The notes beneath the pieces are model-generated. The model ran no database searches, was not told the origin of the DNA, and saw only the letters and a program-made list of their open reading frames with translations. Of a DNA stretch of 12,110 nucleotides, positions 1,711 through 10,869 are shown piece after piece. This DNA is from a virus. Lineage: Duplodnaviria > Heunggongvirae > Uroviricota > Caudoviricetes. The position numbers were made by a program, and so were the translations under genes. The stretch's first letter is position 1; every line of letters begins with the position of its first letter. Location: positions 1 to 12,110 of IMG/VR virus record IMGVR_UViG_2778261454_000009; one strand, 5' to 3'.

Positions 1711-2829
1711 TCAGGCCACGTATTCCGGTTTCATATCCGCCAGGGTGATGCTGAATTGATCGTGCAGTTCATCGCCTAAGTGACGCTTTGAAGATGCAAG
1801 CATGCGCTCGGCTTCAGCGAACCGTTCGGATGCATGCGGCTCGTCGGGCTGGGGCAGGGATTTAATAGCCTCCTCAACCTTGTTGCGTGCATCCACTAGG
1901 TAATAACGCTTTACGGCTTTGTTTTTCAGCTCGGTGAATAGTGCGGATCCCAGCGTAGCTTTCGCCGTTTCAATGTCGGCACGCAGCGATTTGGCGCTAT
2001 CCACGTCCTGAGCAGATTCGATGCGTTCGCGGAAATCATCGGCAAGAGAGTCGACATTTACCGACGATTCCTGTGCGCTTTGCGTGGTTGTGACGGTGTC
2101 ACCTGAGATATCAGCCAGGCTAACGCGTTGCGGCGTTGGGTTGATCTCTTTTTCTGTGCGCTGTTCAATCTCATCAGGGGTGTACACACCAAGAACAACT
2201 GCAGGGCAATACAGGCGCGCCCAGTATTTGAGTGCCAGATAAGCGATCTGCTGTTTCGGGTTTGATACCCAAAGTGGAGAATTACGTGTGATTACGCTGG
2301 AGAGGAAAACAGGCTCTCCCCAGGTGATATCACTTTCACCGCGAATAACGGCACCTACCCGTACCGACAGTCCTTGTTCATCAGCACTTTCCCAACCGCG
2401 TACCATTTCTTTCTTGTCGTACGTCCCGCCACCTTTCGCAGGCTTTTTAACGGTTATCTCGCGGCTGCTGGCACATTTCGACCAGTCGCCCTCGTACTCA
2501 TAGTGAAAGCGGCCAACGATGGCGTTTGAGCTGGAGATCACCGCATTAACCAGTTGCGCTTCGTATCCCAGGACACCGTTAACCAGGTGCGTCTTTTGCG
2601 CCACGGCGTAAGGGTTCATACCCCACTGCATCGCCTGCATGATGATGGCCATGCAGTCTGCCGGATTGCCGCGGAGGTGCTCAGGCACCGTTACGGCTGC
2701 CTGTGCCATCAACCCGGCGACAGACTGAAGCTGGGTTAAAGCCTGCACGTTGAAAATGGCATTGCTGGCTGAGATCGTGTTTGGAGTCTGCTGTTCAGCG
2801 GTTACGATATTCGTGTTTTCCATCATCAT
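1711..2829 (-). CDS. recT: RecT/Red-beta superfamily single-strand annealing protein
   Basis: 372-aa ORF immediately downstream of recE in the same orientation (6-bp gap). Region ...DCMAIIMQAMQWGMNPYAVAQ...LGYEAQLVNAVI resembles the conserved Bet/RecT core (compare lambda Bet ALLIVANQYGLNPWTKEIYAF). AAGGGG RBS before a triple ATG. Family assigned from motif plus recE-recT synteny. Confidence 0.7.
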   Translation of the reverse strand: MMMENTNIVTAEQQTPNTISASNAIFNVQALTQLQSVAGLMAQAAVTVPEHLRGNPADCMAIIMQAMQWGMNPYAVAQKTHLVNGVLGYEAQLVNAVISSSNAIVGRFHYEYEGDWSKCASSREITVKKPAKGGGTYDKKEMVRGWESADEQGLSVRVGAVIRGESDITWGEPVFLSSVITRNSPLWVSNPKQQIAYLALKYWARLYCPAVVLGVYTPDEIEQRTEKEINPTPQRVSLADISGDTVTTTQSAQESSVNVDSLADDFRERIESAQDVDSAKSLRADIETAKATLGSALFTELKNKAVKRYYLVDARNKVEEAIKSLPQPDEPHASERFAEAERMLASSKRHLGDELHDQFSITLADMKPEYVA

Positions 2830-2834
2830 TCCCC

Positions 2835-5800
2835 TTATGCCTGAGTACGCAGCGCTTCAAGGCGGCGCAGGTCGAAGTCGTTCAGTTCGTCGGTGTAGTC
2901 AGCAGTGATTGGCGCTGGCCATTCACCTGTGTCGAATCCGGTTGCGATATTGCGCATCGCTTTGCGGTACTCGAGCATACCCAGCTCCAGTAGTTCAGCG
3001 GATGCCTCGATGATGGCGATCCAGTGGTAGTTCTCGTCTTTGTTGACGAAAATCCAGAAGAACTGGTCCAATGCTGCGGTCTCGCAATACATGGCGGCGC
3101 TCAGGTGGTAATCACGGTCGATGATTTCCCGGTGCAGTTTGGCGCGCAAACCTTCCTGTTTAATGTTCCACATGCTGATGGTTTTCAGGTCGGCACCGAT
3201 GCGAACGCCGTCCAGGTCGATCTCCAGATCAGGACGAACGCGGACTTCCAGACCGGTTTCGTCGTCAAAGCCAAAGTAGCTCACCTCAACAGCGCGGCTC
3301 GGATGCTGAAGCAGCATCCCGGCGGTTGGGTGTGCCAGTAATGCCGACTGAATAGCCAGCGCGGTGCTCAGTTGCTGACGGGTGACCAGCACTTTCCCTT
3401 GCGGATTCTCACGCCAGGCATCCAGCAGTTCGTCGGCAACGACGGCGTCCGGATTAACAGACTTCACGGTCTGGATCAGATCCGCTTTGGTACCGGACAC
3501 TTTCAGTGGTTGGGGCTTCTGCGCCTCCTGTGCAACCAAGTCAGGATTGATGATTGCCAGTTGCTCGAGTAACGCATCACGGCTACCGCTGGTTTTCACC
3601 TGTGCTGGCAGAGTGGCGTTGTATTCCTTGATGCAGGCTTTCATCGCCGCTGCGGTCTGCTTCTGGTCCGCTTCGATACGCTGATACTCTTCAGGAAGCG
3701 ACATATAGCTCTGACCAGTTTCCTCGACTGAACCACCCAGCGGCACCTGTGCTGGCAGAGTGGCGTTGTATTCTTCGAGCAAGGCTTTGATCTCATCTGC
3801 ACTCAGCAGCGCTTGCAGACCTGCGTTGTAATCATCGATAAACGCGCGGATCGTTGCCGTCGTGGTGAATGCGCCTTCCGGAATTACCGGTTCAACGCTG
3901 AATTCGGCATCCAGCAGTTCGGGCTGCAGCGCCAGCGCATGCACCAGGTTTCCCATGTCGAGCACCGGTGAGCGTTCTTTGACGATTGTCTTGGCGACGT
4001 GGCGCGCATTAAAGTACATCAGGCTAACTCGGGCATCTTTCACCTGCGTGGAGCTGATACCGTTGGCGGCGTGGTAAACCTCGTTCGGCAAACCTTCATA
4101 ACGACCTGGCTCGAAGTAAGCGGGATACACGGCTACCGGTTCGTCAGTTTGTACTTCTGGTTCGTTTTGTGCCGCAACTGGCTCAATTTGGTTTACAGAA
4201 TCGCTATTTTGGGCGACAGAATCCGCATTCTGGTTTACATCGGCTTGCTGGCTGGTATGTGACTCTTCACCAGTTTCCAGACTGCTTTCGCTTGACTGCA
4301 CTTCATCACCAGCATGTTTTTCATCACTGACAGTTTCTTCCATCTGCACATGGCTGGTGGTGTCCTCATTAACTGGTGAACGGTCATCTGTTTGTGTTTG
4401 TTGATCGCCCATCAGGCCATCAATGGAGAATACGCCGTTGCCCATGTTGGCGATTTGTGGCTGTTTAGCATCTGTTTTCTGCTCTGCAGCGACCTGCTCA
4501 TTAACCTCATTTTCCCAGCTGACGTCCGGCGCATGACCAGCATCAGCCAGCGTTTCTTCTGAGGGGTTTGAGTGGTCATTTTCGGTTAGATTGGCATTGA
4601 TATATGCCCGCAACCGCCCAGGAAAGTTAACCAATTCGGATGATGTGCCGCGGATGAGTGCAAAGATGGCTGCGCGTGAATAGTCCAGGATGCCAGCGGT
4701 TTTGCGCAGCGCCTCAGACCATTCGCTGAACGGACTTTCTTTCTTGCTGACAATCTCTTTAGCGCGACGGTAGACCCCACCAGGTATGTCGTAGATATTG
4801 AAATCCATTGGCAAGGTGGCCAGCGCAATTTCAACATCCAAAGTGTCCAGTGTGTGGACATAGTCGGTATTACGATCGGTCTTATTTCCACCGCCAGCAT
4901 TGGTTTTGACGTCAGTACGTTGAATCTGCGCAACGCGGTTACCTTTCTGCCATTCCTTGGCCAGCAGGCCACGGTCGATGTAATCAGTGTTGAACCACAC
5001 AGTCAGGAACTGGATAACTGTTGCCAGCTCCGGTTTTTTACCGTCGACAGGGAAGACTTTCTTAACAGCATTCACGACTTTATGAATATCGTGCTCAATG
5101 GCTTTTTTGAATGCTTCCACATTCTCAGCAGCCAGCAGCAGGTTCTGGATGTACGTGTCATCAGTGTCCATCTCAAGGCGGACAATCTCGTTTTTCTGCC
5201 CAGCGTCGATGTGATAGAGATATTCACCATCACCGATGAACTGAGCCAGTACGCGCTGACGGAATGGCAGGGTGGCTACGACGATCAGGTTCGGCTGATC
5301 TGGCTGCTGAGATTGTTCTTCGGGACCGACTTCATCACCAACGCTGGTGGTTTCAGTTTTGAGCAGAGGAAACTTTCCACTGCGCCAGTCTTCAACCAGT
5401 TGATTGCGATCACCTGCTTCTGCGTTCACCCAGTCAGACATGAAAGCAGCGATCACTTCAGGTTCATGCTCTTCACCCTGTTCGAAGATGTCTTTAATCG
5501 CCTGAATCATTTTCCACTCAGCATTAAGACTGAGTTCGCCAACTTCAGGAACATCATTTTTAACCTGCAGCAAGTTCTGGAGATAGGTATTGCTTTCGTC
5601 CAGTGACATTTCGCTGGCAGCCAACTGCTGCTCTTTAGTGACGTGGGTTTGGTATTTATCGTTCATCAGATGGACGGCAAAGCGGACCGCTGGAGTACGG
5701 TTTTCAACCGGGACAATTTCGGACGCAGTCGCATCTTCAACGATTACGGTCGGAGTAGGTGTGTAGGGGGCGTCAACGGAACCAGTAGACACACCAGCGG

Positions 5801-6386: not shown

Positions 6387-6593
6387 CTAGTGGCTGAGTC
6401 CATGCCCCAGACCGTTCAGATAAACTTCAACCAGCAAATCCTTGGTGTAAGTCATTTCTACGCCGCGATGCAGATACAAACGTCCGCGAGCGTTAGCTGA
6501 TGCCGTCCAGGTTGAGTCTTTGTGTTTGACGAGCATCCCCGGCTGAACTGCGCCGCGGTTTACTGTCTGTGTACCGTAGTGCTGATGAACCAT
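6387..6593 (-). CDS. Small protein, first gene of the leftward early operon (KilR position by synteny)
   Basis: The ORF track's 116-aa version starts at a TTG (6737) with no usable RBS. The in-frame ATG at 6593 (MVHQHYGTQTVNRG...) is preceded by GGAGAA at about 6 nt and gives a 68-aa product. Function is inferred from position only. Confidence 0.55.
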   Translation of the reverse strand: MVHQHYGTQTVNRGAVQPGMLVKHKDSTWTASANARGRLYLHRGVEMTYTKDLLVEVYLNGLGHGLSH

Positions 6594-6845
6594 GATGTTC
6601 TCCAGTTTTTCTGAGTGAACTTCGCTGGTGGTGCCGCGGCGCTGATCTTCACGGTTGAGCGTTTTAACTCTGCAATTCACCACCGCGAAGCTCACTCTGT
6701 GCTTTGCCCTTGTCGCCAGGCTGGCGGAACGTTTCAAACCTACTGCGCGTTAATCTCACCACCTCATTCCGGTCTTCGTATGCCCCGGACGGCTACTTCG
6801 TGGGCTCCATGCCTGGGTGGTTCGTGGTGCGTCTTGGTGATTGCA

Positions 6846-6874
6846 TATTAAGCCTGAGACTTAAATCATGTCAA
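6846..6874 (-). promoter_or_regulatory. PL-like sigma70 promoter for the leftward operon
   Basis: Minus strand reads TTGACA (6874..6869), a 17-nt spacer, then TTAATA (6851..6846). The spacer and -10 contain the operator palindrome also found at the rightward promoter. Confidence 0.5.
6848..6864. promoter_or_regulatory. Putative repressor operator, 17-bp near-palindrome (OL-like)
   Basis: TTAAGCCTGAGACTTAA is the exact reverse complement of 9062-9078 and is itself a 14/17 palindrome. An additional half-site TCAGGCTTAATT lies at 6902-6913. Confidence 0.45.
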
Positions 6875-7015
6875 GCTCCAGGCGAAATGTGATTGTAAGT
6901 TTCAGGCTTAATTGTGATGTTCACCGAATTGCAGGCAAAAAAAATCCCGACGCTAAGGTCGAGATCGGGGACTTCGTGGCTGGGTGTTGGCGGCTGAGAT
7001 GGTGGGTGAGGGTGT

Positions 7016-7045
7016 AAAAAACCCGGCGCTGTGGCCGGGTTTTTT
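7016..7045. terminator. Bidirectional rho-independent terminator
   Basis: AAAAAA-CCCGGC-gctgtg-GCCGGG-TTTTTT: a 6-7 bp GC stem with a 6-nt loop, flanked by an A-run and a T-run. It starts 2 nt after the stop of the 34-aa ORF and separates the AT-rich unit from the PL-like promoter. Confidence 0.65.
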
Positions 7046-7047
7046 CA

Positions 7048-7152
7048 TTACTGCTGGTTAAATCCTTTCGGCGAGTGCTGCTGTTCTTTATTACCAAATT
7101 TTTGATTTACAATGATTTTATAAGCGTTATTGAGAGCTTGCTTTATAGACAT
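7048..7152 (-). CDS. Small ORF (34 aa) co-transcribed downstream of the HslV-like gene
   Basis: Hand translation MSIKQALNNAYKIIVNQKFGNKEQQHSPKGFNQQ. AAGGAG lies 6 nt upstream of the ATG at 7152, 17 nt after the upstream gene's stop. It ends 2 nt before the terminator and is AT-rich like its neighbour. Short ORFs are prone to false calls. Confidence 0.35.
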   Translation of the reverse strand: MSIKQALNNAYKIIVNQKFGNKEQQHSPKGFNQQ

Positions 7153-7169
7153 TAATATCTCCTTATGTG

Positions 7170-8474
7170 TTATTGACGATTAAAGTAGTTAGAGTTTAGC
7201 TCTTTAGGGAAGTAGTGTTTACGATTTACCCAAACAAATCCATCAACTTTTGATATCACAGCGACATCAACAGGCCCACCGACAGTTTCATAATCATGTG
7301 ATACTTTTCTTTTGAATGCAGTGATGTTCACTAATGATTCGGCCATATACGCAAGATCTGCCTTCCCAAGTGATTGCAACATCGATATCATTTTATTTGT
7401 ATGGTTATTAACAATATAGCTTTCAAGTTTAGTATCGTGATCTTGTAAAAGTACGTTTTTGAGTTCCTCAATTTCACTGGAGAAGTGATTGGCTAGTACT
7501 CCATTGTTCATTGCAGGGAAAATATTGCTAGAAACATAATGATTAAGCCGATCAAAAACTTCCTCTGTAAGAGTTCTGTTAAAATTAATGATGTTAGGGT
7601 TGCACCCATCAATGAAAGTTACTACTTCATCTTCTTGAGCAAATGGTATAACAAACCCCATATTGGTTACCTCATTATGGGATTTATTATCAATATTATG
7701 GATCATCAATTTGTTTTTAAAAATGCCGTAGATATGAAGAGTGCAAATGGAAGGGTAATATTCTTCCTCTCCATAACCTGTTATAACAATCCCTGAATAT
7801 GTACGACTAGCATGGACTTTGAAAATTAAATAAGTGGAATATAATATGACTTTTTCCATAAGCTCTTGCTGTATATTTTCACAGTTATCAAGAACAATAA
7901 TTGATGAAATGTATGGCGATATTAAATCTTGTATATATGCTAAAGCATCATTAAACTCTTCTGTATCAAACCCTTCGAAAAAGAGATTATTCCTTAAGAT
8001 TCCTATCTCTAAATCAAAGGCTTGCTTAACTATGTTTTGAAAAATAACATTGTCGAGTTCAACGGCGGGGTTCATTGTTAAATAGTTTACTACATTATTA
8101 TCATTAATGTATCTCATCAAACCTTTGAGGTTATCAACAACAAGGTTTATAACGCAAGCCTCTCTCATTTCATTTGTTATAAGGTCTGAGTTACCATTGA
8201 TGAATTTTACAAAGTCATTAACATATTCTTTAATGGTAGGGAAACTAGTTTTCCCCAATTGTTTTCTATAGGATTTAATTATAAGTTCCCACGGTGCGCC
8301 ACCCAGTGTCGCATTATTATAAATCATGATCCCCACGGGATGGTGTTTAGATAGTTCGAATAGTTTTTCCGCACTATTATTTATTTTTACTAATCTATTA
8401 TGCTCTGTGGTGACTGCAGAGTCAGCAGCAAGGGCGATTCCAGTATTATTTATTACAACAATCTCAGCTGTCAT
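7170..8474 (-). CDS. HslV/20S-proteasome-beta-like N-terminal-nucleophile hydrolase homolog with a large insertion
   Basis: 434-aa product from ATG at 8474 (the track's longer form from 8573 has no RBS). The ORF is about 33% GC. N-terminus MTAEIVVINNTGIALAADSAVT...NNSAEKLFEL parallels HslV [24 protein letters not shown]...KKVRRL and 20S beta [21 protein letters not shown]...KNCSKIHFI, with Thr directly after Met, Asp at 17 and Lys near 33-36. Mid-protein IVITGYGEEEYYPSICTLHIYG and C-terminal DYETVGGPVDVAVISKVDGFVWV resemble the corresponding T1-family strands. The GSG loop is not recognisable. Comparison is from memory, not a search. Confidence 0.6.
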   Translation of the reverse strand: MTAEIVVINNTGIALAADSAVTTEHNRLVKINNSAEKLFELSKHHPVGIMIYNNATLGGAPWELIIKSYRKQLGKTSFPTIKEYVNDFVKFINGNSDLITNEMREACVINLVVDNLKGLMRYINDNNVVNYLTMNPAVELDNVIFQNIVKQAFDLEIGILRNNLFFEGFDTEEFNDALAYIQDLISPYISSIIVLDNCENIQQELMEKVILYSTYLIFKVHASRTYSGIVITGYGEEEYYPSICTLHIYGIFKNKLMIHNIDNKSHNEVTNMGFVIPFAQEDEVVTFIDGCNPNIINFNRTLTEEVFDRLNHYVSSNIFPAMNNGVLANHFSSEIEELKNVLLQDHDTKLESYIVNNHTNKMISMLQSLGKADLAYMAESLVNITAFKRKVSHDYETVGGPVDVAVISKVDGFVWVNRKHYFPKELNSNYFNRQ

Positions 8475-8502
8475 TGCAAAACATCCCGTGTAGTAGTGAT
8501 AA

Positions 8503-8531
8503 ATATTAATTAAATTGATAGTTTTTTTCAA
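8503..8531 (-). promoter_or_regulatory. Candidate sigma70 promoter for the HslV-like unit
   Basis: Minus strand reads TTGAAA (8531..8526), a 17-nt spacer, then TAATAT (8508..8503), about 30 nt upstream of the ATG at 8474. Confidence 0.45.
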
Positions 8532-8615
8532 TCTAACATAAATGGCGGAATCACCCCCCAGTAAAGACATCATTGTCTCATGGGAACTAAAAATTCAGGA
8601 CAAACCTAAAGCGAT

Positions 8616-9336: not shown

Positions 9337-9876
9337 ATGCAATCACTTACGTATCAACAGAGTAACGGGTTCATTTCAGCAGCGCTGATAAATCGCGCTC
9401 AACCAAAACCGGGCGTCAGTTGTGGTGCCCTCCGTGATGCTGTTCGCGCCTGGTCAGCAGTAGCCGGGCAGGACGTTGTAACGGCCCTGATCGTTGAAGA
9501 GTGGCACCGGATAGGTGGCGAAGGTATCGACTTTCCGGCAGATCACAGCCGTGCCCGGCAGAAGCTGTTCCGCTTCCTGGATAACCATTTCAACAGCGAA
9601 CGGTACCGCGAGAACGTCCGCCAGCTGACGCCGGCAATCCTCGCTGTCCTGCCGATTGAATACCGCAATCGTCTGCTACCAGAAGACAACGTAATGGCTC
9701 GTCTGGCAAGGCTGGAGAAGGAAACCAGCGAAGCGAAGATTGCTGTCGCAATGGATGCGCCACGTCATCAGAAGCTGAAAGAGTTGAGCGAGGGGATCGT
9801 GGAGATGTATCGCGTTGACCCTGGGTTAACCGGTCCGTTGATGGAAATGGTGCAGATTATGCTGGGGGCTATATGA
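9337..9876 (+). CDS. YdaT-like protein (cII-like regulator / putative toxin YdaT family)
   Basis: 179-aa ORF 11 nt after the Cro-like gene, with AAGGAA RBS. The motif LTPAILAVLPIEYRNRL resembles the conserved PAILAILP segment I recall from Rac YdaT. Gene order matches ydaS-ydaT. Confidence 0.6.
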   Translation: MQSLTYQQSNGFISAALINRAQPKPGVSCGALRDAVRAWSAVAGQDVVTALIVEEWHRIGGEGIDFPADHSRARQKLFRFLDNHFNSERYRENVRQLTPAILAVLPIEYRNRLLPEDNVMARLARLEKETSEAKIAVAMDAPRHQKLKELSEGIVEMYRVDPGLTGPLMEMVQIMLGAI

Positions 9877-9960
9877 CCGGTTCAAAAATGGCGAAAGCCG
9901 CGGTGCTCGAACACCAACGGCTTTCAGGTGCAAAAACAGTGCGTAATTGCGGAGAACAGT

Positions 9961-10869
9961 ATGTCAAACACCGCTGAAATAATCAATTTCCCAAATAAAA
10001 CCGAACAACCGGGAGGTCGTATGGCCGACCTGTCGAACGGGTATACCAAGGTCGCTAACGAGATCCAACAGCTTAAGCCTCGCCTGAGACTGTCAGGCCG
10101 GGAATGGCAATGTTTTGAGGCGGTGATCTGGCTTACCTACGGCTGGAACAAGAAACAGGACCGCGTGACAAATACGGTTATTGCCGAGCTTACGGGCCTG
10201 AGCGATACGCATGTATCGGACGCGCTTAAGTCTCTCGCAGAACGCAAAATCATCTTTTCACAGAAGCAGGGCATGATGAAAATCGTCGGTGTAAACACTG
10301 ACCTTTCAGCATGGATTTTAGACAAACCGGAAACGGGAAGAAAATTCCCGAAAACGGGAAAATCCTTCCCGAAATCAGGAATAACCTTCCCGAAAACGGT
10401 AGACACCCAATACAAGAACAAGAACAGTATTAAAAGATCTTCGTCCGAGAATTCTGACGAATCCTCTGACGCACGTCTGAAGAAATTTTTATCAACTCAT
10501 CCTGAAGCTGCGGTCTACACACCATCCGGTGCGAAGTGGGGCTCTGCTGAAGACCTCGAGACAGCTAAGTGGATTTCCTCCAGGGTGAAGCTGATTAACC
10601 CAACCTGCAAAGCCCCGGACATGACCTCCTGGTCTAACACTGTTCGCCTGATGCGCCAGATAGACAACCGGTCGCACCAGGACATCTGCGCGCTGTATGA
10701 CTGGGCTAGCAAACACCACTTCTGGCAGACCAACATCCTGAGTCCCGAAAGCCTGCGTAAGCAGTGGGACAAGCTGACAATGCAGCGTAACGCCGGAGGT
10801 GAGCAGCGCGCTGTCAAGCCAGATCTGGACTTCAACAACACTGACTGGGCCTATGGGGTGATCCGATGA
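9961..10869 (+). CDS. Replication initiator, lambda O-like
   Basis: Start at ATG 9961 (GGAG 6 nt upstream; the track's start at 9928 is an upstream extension). MSNTAEIINF... resembles lambda O MTNTAKILNF, and ...LTYGWNKKQDRVT... matches O ...KTYGWNKPMDRIT. Iteron repeats are embedded in the linker-coding region. The stop overlaps the next start (ATGA). Confidence 0.8.
   Translation: MSNTAEIINFPNKTEQPGGRMADLSNGYTKVANEIQQLKPRLRLSGREWQCFEAVIWLTYGWNKKQDRVTNTVIAELTGLSDTHVSDALKSLAERKIIFSQKQGMMKIVGVNTDLSAWILDKPETGRKFPKTGKSFPKSGITFPKTVDTQYKNKNSIKRSSSENSDESSDARLKKFLSTHPEAAVYTPSGAKWGSAEDLETAKWISSRVKLINPTCKAPDMTSWSNTVRLMRQIDNRSHQDICALYDWASKHHFWQTNILSPESLRKQWDKLTMQRNAGGEQRAVKPDLDFNNTDWAYGVIR
10325..10403. 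repeat. Origin iterons: four ~21-bp direct repeats, each an internal inverted repeat, inside the O-like gene
   Basis: CCGGAAACGGGAA / TTCCCGAAAACGGGAA / TTCCCGAAATCAGGAA / TTCCCGAAAACGGTAG spaced at 21-22 bp, followed by a more AT-rich stretch (10405-10450). They encode the FPKTG peptide repeats. Architecture resembles lambda ori (TCCCTCAAAACGAGGGA x4). Confidence 0.6.

Follow-up and report, generated by a model that had tools for sequence, protein, structure and literature searches.

The 34-aa protein encoded directly downstream of a proteasome-like gene in an Escherichia coli prophage is best explained as a conserved partner of that enzyme, most likely an inhibitor or an antitoxin-like protein, in a cassette that possibly serves phage exclusion; as a whole, we give this explanation a probability of about 0.6. 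The family of the large protein was recognized in 2021 as a proteasome homolog, without functional or genomic clue, and the small partner, which offers a first handle on this family, is unreported in the literature searched. Searches of the literature on proteasome-like or HslV-like defence systems, on Rac hotspots and on follow-ups of the 2021 paper found no functional study. The near-universal small partner gene appears to be new information.

A Rac-like lambdoid prophage of E. coli makes up the stretch of 12,110 nucleotides analysed here (the window), and the features of its two-gene unit are collected in Table 1. The small ORF extends from an ATG at 7152-7150 to a TAA at 7050-7048 and translates as MSIKQALNNAYKIIVNQKFGNKEQQHSPKGFNQQ. 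A gap of 17 nt (7169-7153) separates it from the TAA of the large gene at 7172-7170. The terminator AAAAAACCCGGCCACAGCGCCGGGTTTTTT begins 2 nt past the small ORF stop and has a folding energy of -18.9 kcal/mol (z = -4.5), a value that none of 200 shuffled sequences reached. Every element described in the initial annotation, from the 34-aa ORF and the 17-nt gap to the spacing of AAGGAG and the terminator 2 nt beyond, is present in the sequence. A second terminator-like hairpin, GATCTCGACCTTAGCGTCGGGATT followed by T8, lies at 6943-6966 on the minus strand, ~50 nt downstream of the first; tandem terminators thus separate the cassette from kil.

Table 1. Features of the two-gene cassette in the window.
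Feature	Position	Strand	Remark
Candidate sigma-70 promoter, TTGAAA-17-TAATAT	8503..8531	minus	consensus match only
Large gene, 434 aa from ATG 8474	7170..8474	minus	proteasome-beta-like Ntn hydrolase
Shine-Dalgarno sequence AAGGAG	7159..7164	minus	6 nt 5' of the small ORF ATG
Small ORF, 34 aa plus stop	7048..7152	minus	sequence, orthologous ORFs, third-position bias
Intrinsic terminator (A-tract, CCCGGC/GCCGGG stem, T-tract)	7016..7045	minus	closes the two-gene unit

The earlier description of the small ORF as unannotated is right for RefSeq/PGAP, from which the ORF is absent, but not for GenBank and UniRef, where the exact 34-aa protein is listed as "hypothetical protein" (ELF09959.1, EOW97843.1 and A0A377BHT8_ECOLX). 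The exact protein was called in 2107 blocks of the assembly collection, and it sits directly 3' of the large gene in all ten distinct contexts shown. The cluster of this small protein (P0130) also holds a 40-aa variant, in which a six-residue extension (…FNQQDRKSVV) replaces the usual end; it is evidence from one contig only that the C-terminal length varies.

For close relatives of the large gene, the surrounding contigs were inspected, including metagenomic and viral ones. Large proteins that are 81%, 70%, 68%, 46% and 42-46% identical to that of the window are each followed by an ORF of 34-37 aa, which begins 10-28 nt past the large gene stop and in most cases has a GGAG-type ribosome-binding site upstream. 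Examples of these orthologous small proteins are MSVKQAMNNAYKIIVNQKFGNKEQPSSPKGYNQK, MSVKQALDSAYKIIINQKFSSQPPQKTNAKNYNEQ, MSVKQLVDNAYKIIINQKFGGQQDKPTTTKSYNQQ, MSLEKIIAEAYKVIAETKFGSNSTQQAIQAGFKK and MSLQQVVDNAYKALAAAKFPIGSGSSSQQAALATKKK. Both position and sequence are thus kept beside the homologs of the large gene from 81% down to 42% identity, which was the check proposed along with the initial annotation. Among small proteins of the window type, residues M1, A10, Y11, K12 and F19 are invariant. Over the first 22 codons, the small ORF and its closest relative differ at codon positions 1/2/3 in 2/0/12 cases, and the corresponding differences against two further relatives are 6/2/9 and 7/2/13. 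Comparison with the small ORF of the 81% relative (L007) gave 19 synonymous and eight non-synonymous changes. Over the first 20 codons, pS amounts to 0.8-1.0 versus a pN of 0.05-0.14. The orthologs differ in length by whole codons (34, 35 and 37 aa). AF2 prediction from the single sequence yielded a helix at residues 3-18 with a pLDDT of about 85, followed by a polar disordered tail with values below 55. No hydrophobic stretch was found in the 34-aa protein, and a reading as an amphipathic helix or membrane peptide was dropped, as the hydrophobic moment is also matched by 23% of the shuffled sequences.

Judged from this substitution pattern, the 34-codon ORF is almost certainly a genuine protein-coding gene. 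The opposite reading, an untranslated 3' UTR, small RNA, terminator-associated element or chance open frame, draws on Rfam matches over 7014-7121 (AgrB with 27.1 bits against a gathering score of 40; OrzO-P with 23 against 60) and on the finding that 24-28% of control sequences contain an ORF of 34 aa or longer by chance, yet it is very improbable given that substitutions cluster at third codon positions and the peptide is kept as the DNA changes, that ortholog lengths change in whole codons, that a strong Shine-Dalgarno sequence stands at ideal spacing, and that all the Rfam matches fall below threshold and span the terminator hairpin. An identity as a known non-coding RNA was rejected on the same sub-threshold matches, which center on the terminator.

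The association of the two genes extends far beyond these close relatives. One-genome-per-species, metagenomic and viral contigs contributed 80 loci each, and annotated phage or satellite records another three. A locus was counted as paired if an ORF of 34 aa or more begins on the same strand between -25 and +45 nt from the large gene stop. Of the 190 non-redundant loci, which come from bacteria, archaea, phages and satellites, 97% have such an ORF, against 24% for shuffled downstream DNA and 28% for the antisense strand, which bears out the tight coupling and the two-gene unit suggested at the outset. The median length of the downstream ORF is 58 aa, versus 20 aa in shuffled and 24 aa in antisense controls. 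Re-inspection of nine loci with a missed or doubtful small ORF showed that eight of them have one, with an earlier start or in another frame. The sole exception among the about 190 non-redundant loci is that of Vibrio sp. J1-1 (L020), where the large gene appears intact and no small ORF follows it in any frame downstream of 4284. Overlap with the end of the large gene was seen in 82 of the 176 distinct small ORFs, and 89 begin no more than 30 nt from its stop; a Shine-Dalgarno-like 4-mer precedes 60% of the 176 at -18 to -4, compared to 16% at random positions. From this placement, translation of the small gene is probably coupled to that of the large gene. An all-against-all BLAST of the flanking ORFs from the 80 genomes revealed no third conserved gene, and 243 viral contigs encode a relative of the large protein. 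Altogether, the small protein is in all likelihood a functional partner of the enzyme. An apparent natural fusion of the large and small proteins (P0142) was rejected as an unrelated membrane permease clustered by artefact.

Across the family, the small proteins range from 29 to 85 aa, are basic (median net charge +4) and are not hydrophobic. The commonest type, of 50-70 aa, spans Nitrospirae, Planctomycetes, Firmicutes, Cyanobacteria and methanogens; it has a basic N-terminus, the motif x(Y/F)xS..(E/D)(F/Y/W)...(Y/F)(F/L)P with an invariant proline, and a second helix with G..LA..S(L/M), and it has no relative in Pfam or PDB. Several shorter types occur in Gammaproteobacteria, among them that of the window, which is represented by 13 distinct sequences. 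Attempts to join the window type to the common type failed: against an HMM built from 62 long forms, the short forms did not outscore shuffled sequences, an iterative profile built from the 13 window-type sequences recruited nothing at E below 1e-3, and hhalign of A2 against A5 returned a probability of 0.2%. A likeness of "...NQKF" to "...QKKFNP" or "...EKKFFP" exists by eye only and was set aside. By profile comparison, homology is demonstrated within types only, and what is conserved across the family is position and general character. As the types cannot be linked by profile methods, the notion of the same partner everywhere rests on position. The small proteins have undergone either very fast divergence or repeated replacement.

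The large gene is very probably annotated too long. Both the mechanical ORF and the RefSeq CDS (WP_244586339.1, hypothetical protein) comprise 467 aa and reach 8573. The match of phrog_5990 to this 467-aa ORF starts at residue 34, homologs retrieved by protein search extend over just about 93% of it, and nearly all of the best 150 among 6129 family representatives match the profile starting with their own first residue. Because of these three observations, the true large protein very probably has 434 aa and starts at Met34 (ATG 8474), thus beginning with Met-Thr. The annotated CDS accordingly starts 33 codons too early (8475-8573, minus strand), and homologs and profile begin at Met34-Thr35; the start at ATG 8474 is needed for an exposed N-terminal threonine. 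The candidate promoter lies upstream of the 8474 start, within the over-long annotated CDS.

The large protein adopts, in its model, the four-layer alpha-beta-beta-alpha fold of proteasome beta subunits. Structural comparison gave figures of up to 15.6 for proteasome beta subunits, 14.3 for Anbu, 12.2 for BPH, 12.0 for HslV and 11.5 for Connectase. Among 30 diverse members, M1 and T2 are invariant, which places a threonine nucleophile at the N-terminus. D18, K37 (in a K-L-F context), G399/G400, D403, V404 and A405 are likewise invariant, and G48 is at least 90% conserved. The C-terminal GGPxDVA motif is also invariant, and in an HMM search GGxIDVAVI aligns to residues 168-185 of archaeal proteasome beta. 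In an alignment by eye, T2, D18, K37 and G48 would be the equivalents of Thr1, Asp17, Lys33 and Gly47, and GGPxDVA that of SGG..DVAVI. The protein is devoid of a propeptide and possesses two helical insertions, at residues about 95-220 and about 293-370, which together account for ~230 aa. In the first, helices 62-73 and 81-94 (H1/H2) are followed by four extra helices at 101-218; in the second, helices 293-321 and 325-368 are placed between helix 281-289 and helix 371-392 (H3/H4). Judged from its model and sequence, the large protein carries the proteasome-like Ntn hydrolase fold and catalytic residue set, and its activity as a peptide-bond hydrolase or transferase is putative.

The family is large, with 6129 clusters at 50% identity and E up to 1e-3 in 1.84 billion representatives, and 3469 at E up to 1e-30. 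PF00227 was matched weakly by two of the 30 diverse members; neither protein of the window matched a Pfam or NCBIfam model, and neither matched a defence model of PADLOC-DB 2.0 (library of 2023) at E up to 1. In PHROGs, the large protein matched phrog_5990 only, the function of which is uncharacterised. It is probably of the PMI type, proteasome homologs described by Fuchs, Alva and Lupas in 2021 (PMC8665760), in which PMI-4, represented by HDY66466.1, is the largest group and is also found in phages. Both PMI-4 and the present family have a proteasome-beta-like core with the Thr1/Asp17/Lys33 set and no propeptide, and long insertions after helices H1/H2 and between H3/H4. They also share a spread over Proteobacteria, Firmicutes, Actinobacteria, Bacteroidetes, PVC, Cyanobacteria, Euryarchaeota and phages, and both are known only from bioinformatics. 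An assignment to PMI-4 fits by architecture and taxonomic spread, although PMI-3 has the same insertion sites. According to the 2021 description, the insertions could hinder ring assembly or form a cap, and no informative genomic context was found (PMC8665760); the near-universal small downstream gene is an addition to it.

The initial annotation had called the large protein HslV-like, which is correct at the level of the proteasome-beta/HslV Ntn fold and its N-terminal threonine, but the protein is not an HslV. HslV, of about 175 aa and free of insertions, assembles into double hexameric rings and requires HslU as its AAA+ partner, whereas the present protein has 434 aa with insertions, no HslU-type or other conserved AAA+ neighbour in 80 genomes, and a small non-ATPase partner.

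The pair occupies a cargo position in the prophage. The genes are ordered as integrase, RecT, RecE, YdaE, Kil, the cassette, an HTH repressor gene in the direction of the cassette, the divergent YdaS and YdaT, and the replication genes O/P. The cassette has a GC content of 31-38%, compared to 50-55% in its flanks, and is present in 13 of 5426 complete E. coli genomes. It fills a slot between kil and the repressor gene, at about 6840-8615 of the window (loci L002, L271, L272 and L273), which in sister prophages contains either HicAB or fumD, each accompanied by a hypothetical gene, or else hypothetical genes in pairs. Two Rac-like prophages with other cargo (H14 and H15) match the window at 6926-7045 only, so that the shared sequence ends at the terminator. 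A near-identical hairpin lies 3' of the small ORF in Klebsiella and other prophages (L007 2266-2310, L003 4438-4480 and L008 2383-2425). The CCCGGCC...GCCGGG terminator is nearly alike in four prophage backbones, and cassette exchange may be anchored by homology at this site. With its candidate promoter, large gene, small gene and terminator, the unit is a self-contained, horizontally mobile, low-GC cassette.

Similar settings recur in other elements. The large gene of Klebsiella lambdoid prophages is located downstream of a CI-type repressor gene, at a distance of a few hundred nt, and a repressor-like HTH gene precedes the large gene in L007 and L008. The pair of Providencia phage PSTRCR_117lys, the small ORF of which is annotated (QQK88394.1), sits between the Q/methylase genes and the lysis genes, and that of a Stenotrophomonas phage adjoins the lysis cassette. 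In the Streptococcus satellite Javan421 (L100), the large gene (2501-3880) is located in an accessory region, with an unannotated 55-aa ORF beginning 6 nt past its stop and a RelBE pair ~1.7 kb downstream. The large gene was also seen in phage-inducible satellites of several Streptococcus species (H20-H26). Some chromosomal neighbours are defence or mobile genes, including type I R-M, methyltransferase, PglZ, Upx, dCTPase, Zeta toxin, integrase and transposase; many others are housekeeping genes, and the count of defence genes stands without a background rate. This context of prophage cargo, satellites and defence neighbours points to a role in conflict, and is suggestive only.

Taking these features together, we propose a mechanism in which the small protein would bind its cognate enzyme through the N-terminal helix and control its activity. 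Translated from the same mRNA, the partner would gate or block the exposed Thr1 active site, and loss or displacement of this inhibitor would release proteolysis. For an enzyme that is devoid of a propeptide, for which no AAA+ partner was detected and whose insertions may hinder ring formation, a trans-acting partner is the simplest restraint on Thr1. Fast divergence of the small protein against the conserved core of the enzyme fits cognate-pair or conflict-driven evolution. The cassette might act in phage exclusion, abortive infection or addiction-type stabilisation of the element; these roles are suggested by its place on the strand of the prophage repressor gene, immediately downstream of it, and by its occurrence in temperate phages and satellites. 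On its own, the role of the small protein as an inhibitor or regulator is tentative, and so is a role of the cassette in defence. The functions proposed along with the initial annotation (regulator, trigger sensor or antitoxin-like component) and any phage resistance are likewise hypothetical. More speculative still, and on balance doubtful, is a two-component immune or addiction module that extends across bacteria and archaea, with the fast-evolving small protein as an inhibitor that phage infection removes or displaces. If true, it would be the first known module with a proteasome-like protease as effector, spread by temperate phages, satellites and prophages as cargo beside repressor genes.

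Several known systems resemble parts of this arrangement. In staphopain-staphostatin and SpeB-Spi, a protease gene and the gene of a small specific inhibitor follow each other in one operon, and the inhibitor shields the cytoplasm from an immediately active enzyme. The gene order, protease before small partner, is the same here; however, staphopain and SpeB are cysteine proteases with folded or propeptide-like inhibitors, whereas the present pair comprises a threonine Ntn hydrolase and, as the putative inhibitor, a 34-aa helix with a tail. Like type II toxin-antitoxin systems, the cassette has a small protein adjacent to, and co-transcribed with, a larger enzymatic partner, and both toxicity and neutralisation are putative. 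Classical type II systems less often place the inhibitor gene downstream of the target gene, which counts against an inhibitor. Lambda rexAB and Rac sieB are cargo downstream of the repressor gene of lambdoid prophages. The cassette resembles them and HicAB, which takes the same slot in sister prophages, in lying directly downstream of the repressor gene and ending at a terminator, but it bears no relationship in sequence or fold to RexA/B, SieB or known toxins. Pup and UBact are small, largely disordered modifiers tied to bacterial proteasome systems, and the small protein shares with them its size, its largely disordered character and its tie to a proteasome-family enzyme. It lacks a conserved C-terminal motif of the GGQ/GGE type (the window protein ends in FNQQ, and its relatives in YNQK, YNEQ, GFKK or KKK), and no PafA/Dop-type ligase was found among the neighbours.

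Two other roles for a genuine small protein are both improbable. In the first, the small protein would be a dedicated substrate or reaction partner that the Thr1 enzyme cleaves or ligates, as Connectase does with MtrA; the conserved motif would then be a recognition or scissile site, K-F in the window type and (Y/F)(F/L)P with its invariant proline in the common type. In the second, it would be a structural subunit or an assembly factor, Ump1-like or cap-like, that is required for oligomerisation or folding and performs no switching. Gene placement for coupled translation suits proteins that are made together, and assembly factors are typically small, basic and partly disordered; the helical insertions are moreover predicted to disturb ring formation or to form a cap (PMC8665760). 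Against it, unlinkable and fast-diverging types beside a highly conserved core are more typical of arms-race or cognate-pair evolution, and the Vibrio locus retains an intact large gene in the absence of a small ORF. We retain an inhibitor or antitoxin-like partner as the preferred reading.

The small partner turns an orphan enzyme into a two-component module, and it points to control by a trans-acting peptide, not by ring assembly or an AAA+ unfoldase. Found as it is in prophage slots, temperate phages and satellites, the module plausibly takes part in conflicts between phages or between phage and host, and such a role, if true, would add proteasome-type chemistry to the prokaryotic immune effectors. 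The case is also an example of how conserved genes below 60 aa stay hidden behind length cut-offs and annotation pipelines.

Two further observations concern other genes of the window. Another 34-aa ORF, at about 9873-9977 on the plus strand, is repeatedly predicted across the end of ydaT and the start of replication gene O, for example at 1176-1280 of L261 and at the same position in L262-L265 and L267-L270. The 116-aa mechanical ORF at 6387-6737 on the minus strand matches the Kil septation-inhibitor family over residues 42-115 only, and as annotated versions of Kil have 68 aa, its mechanical start is too early.
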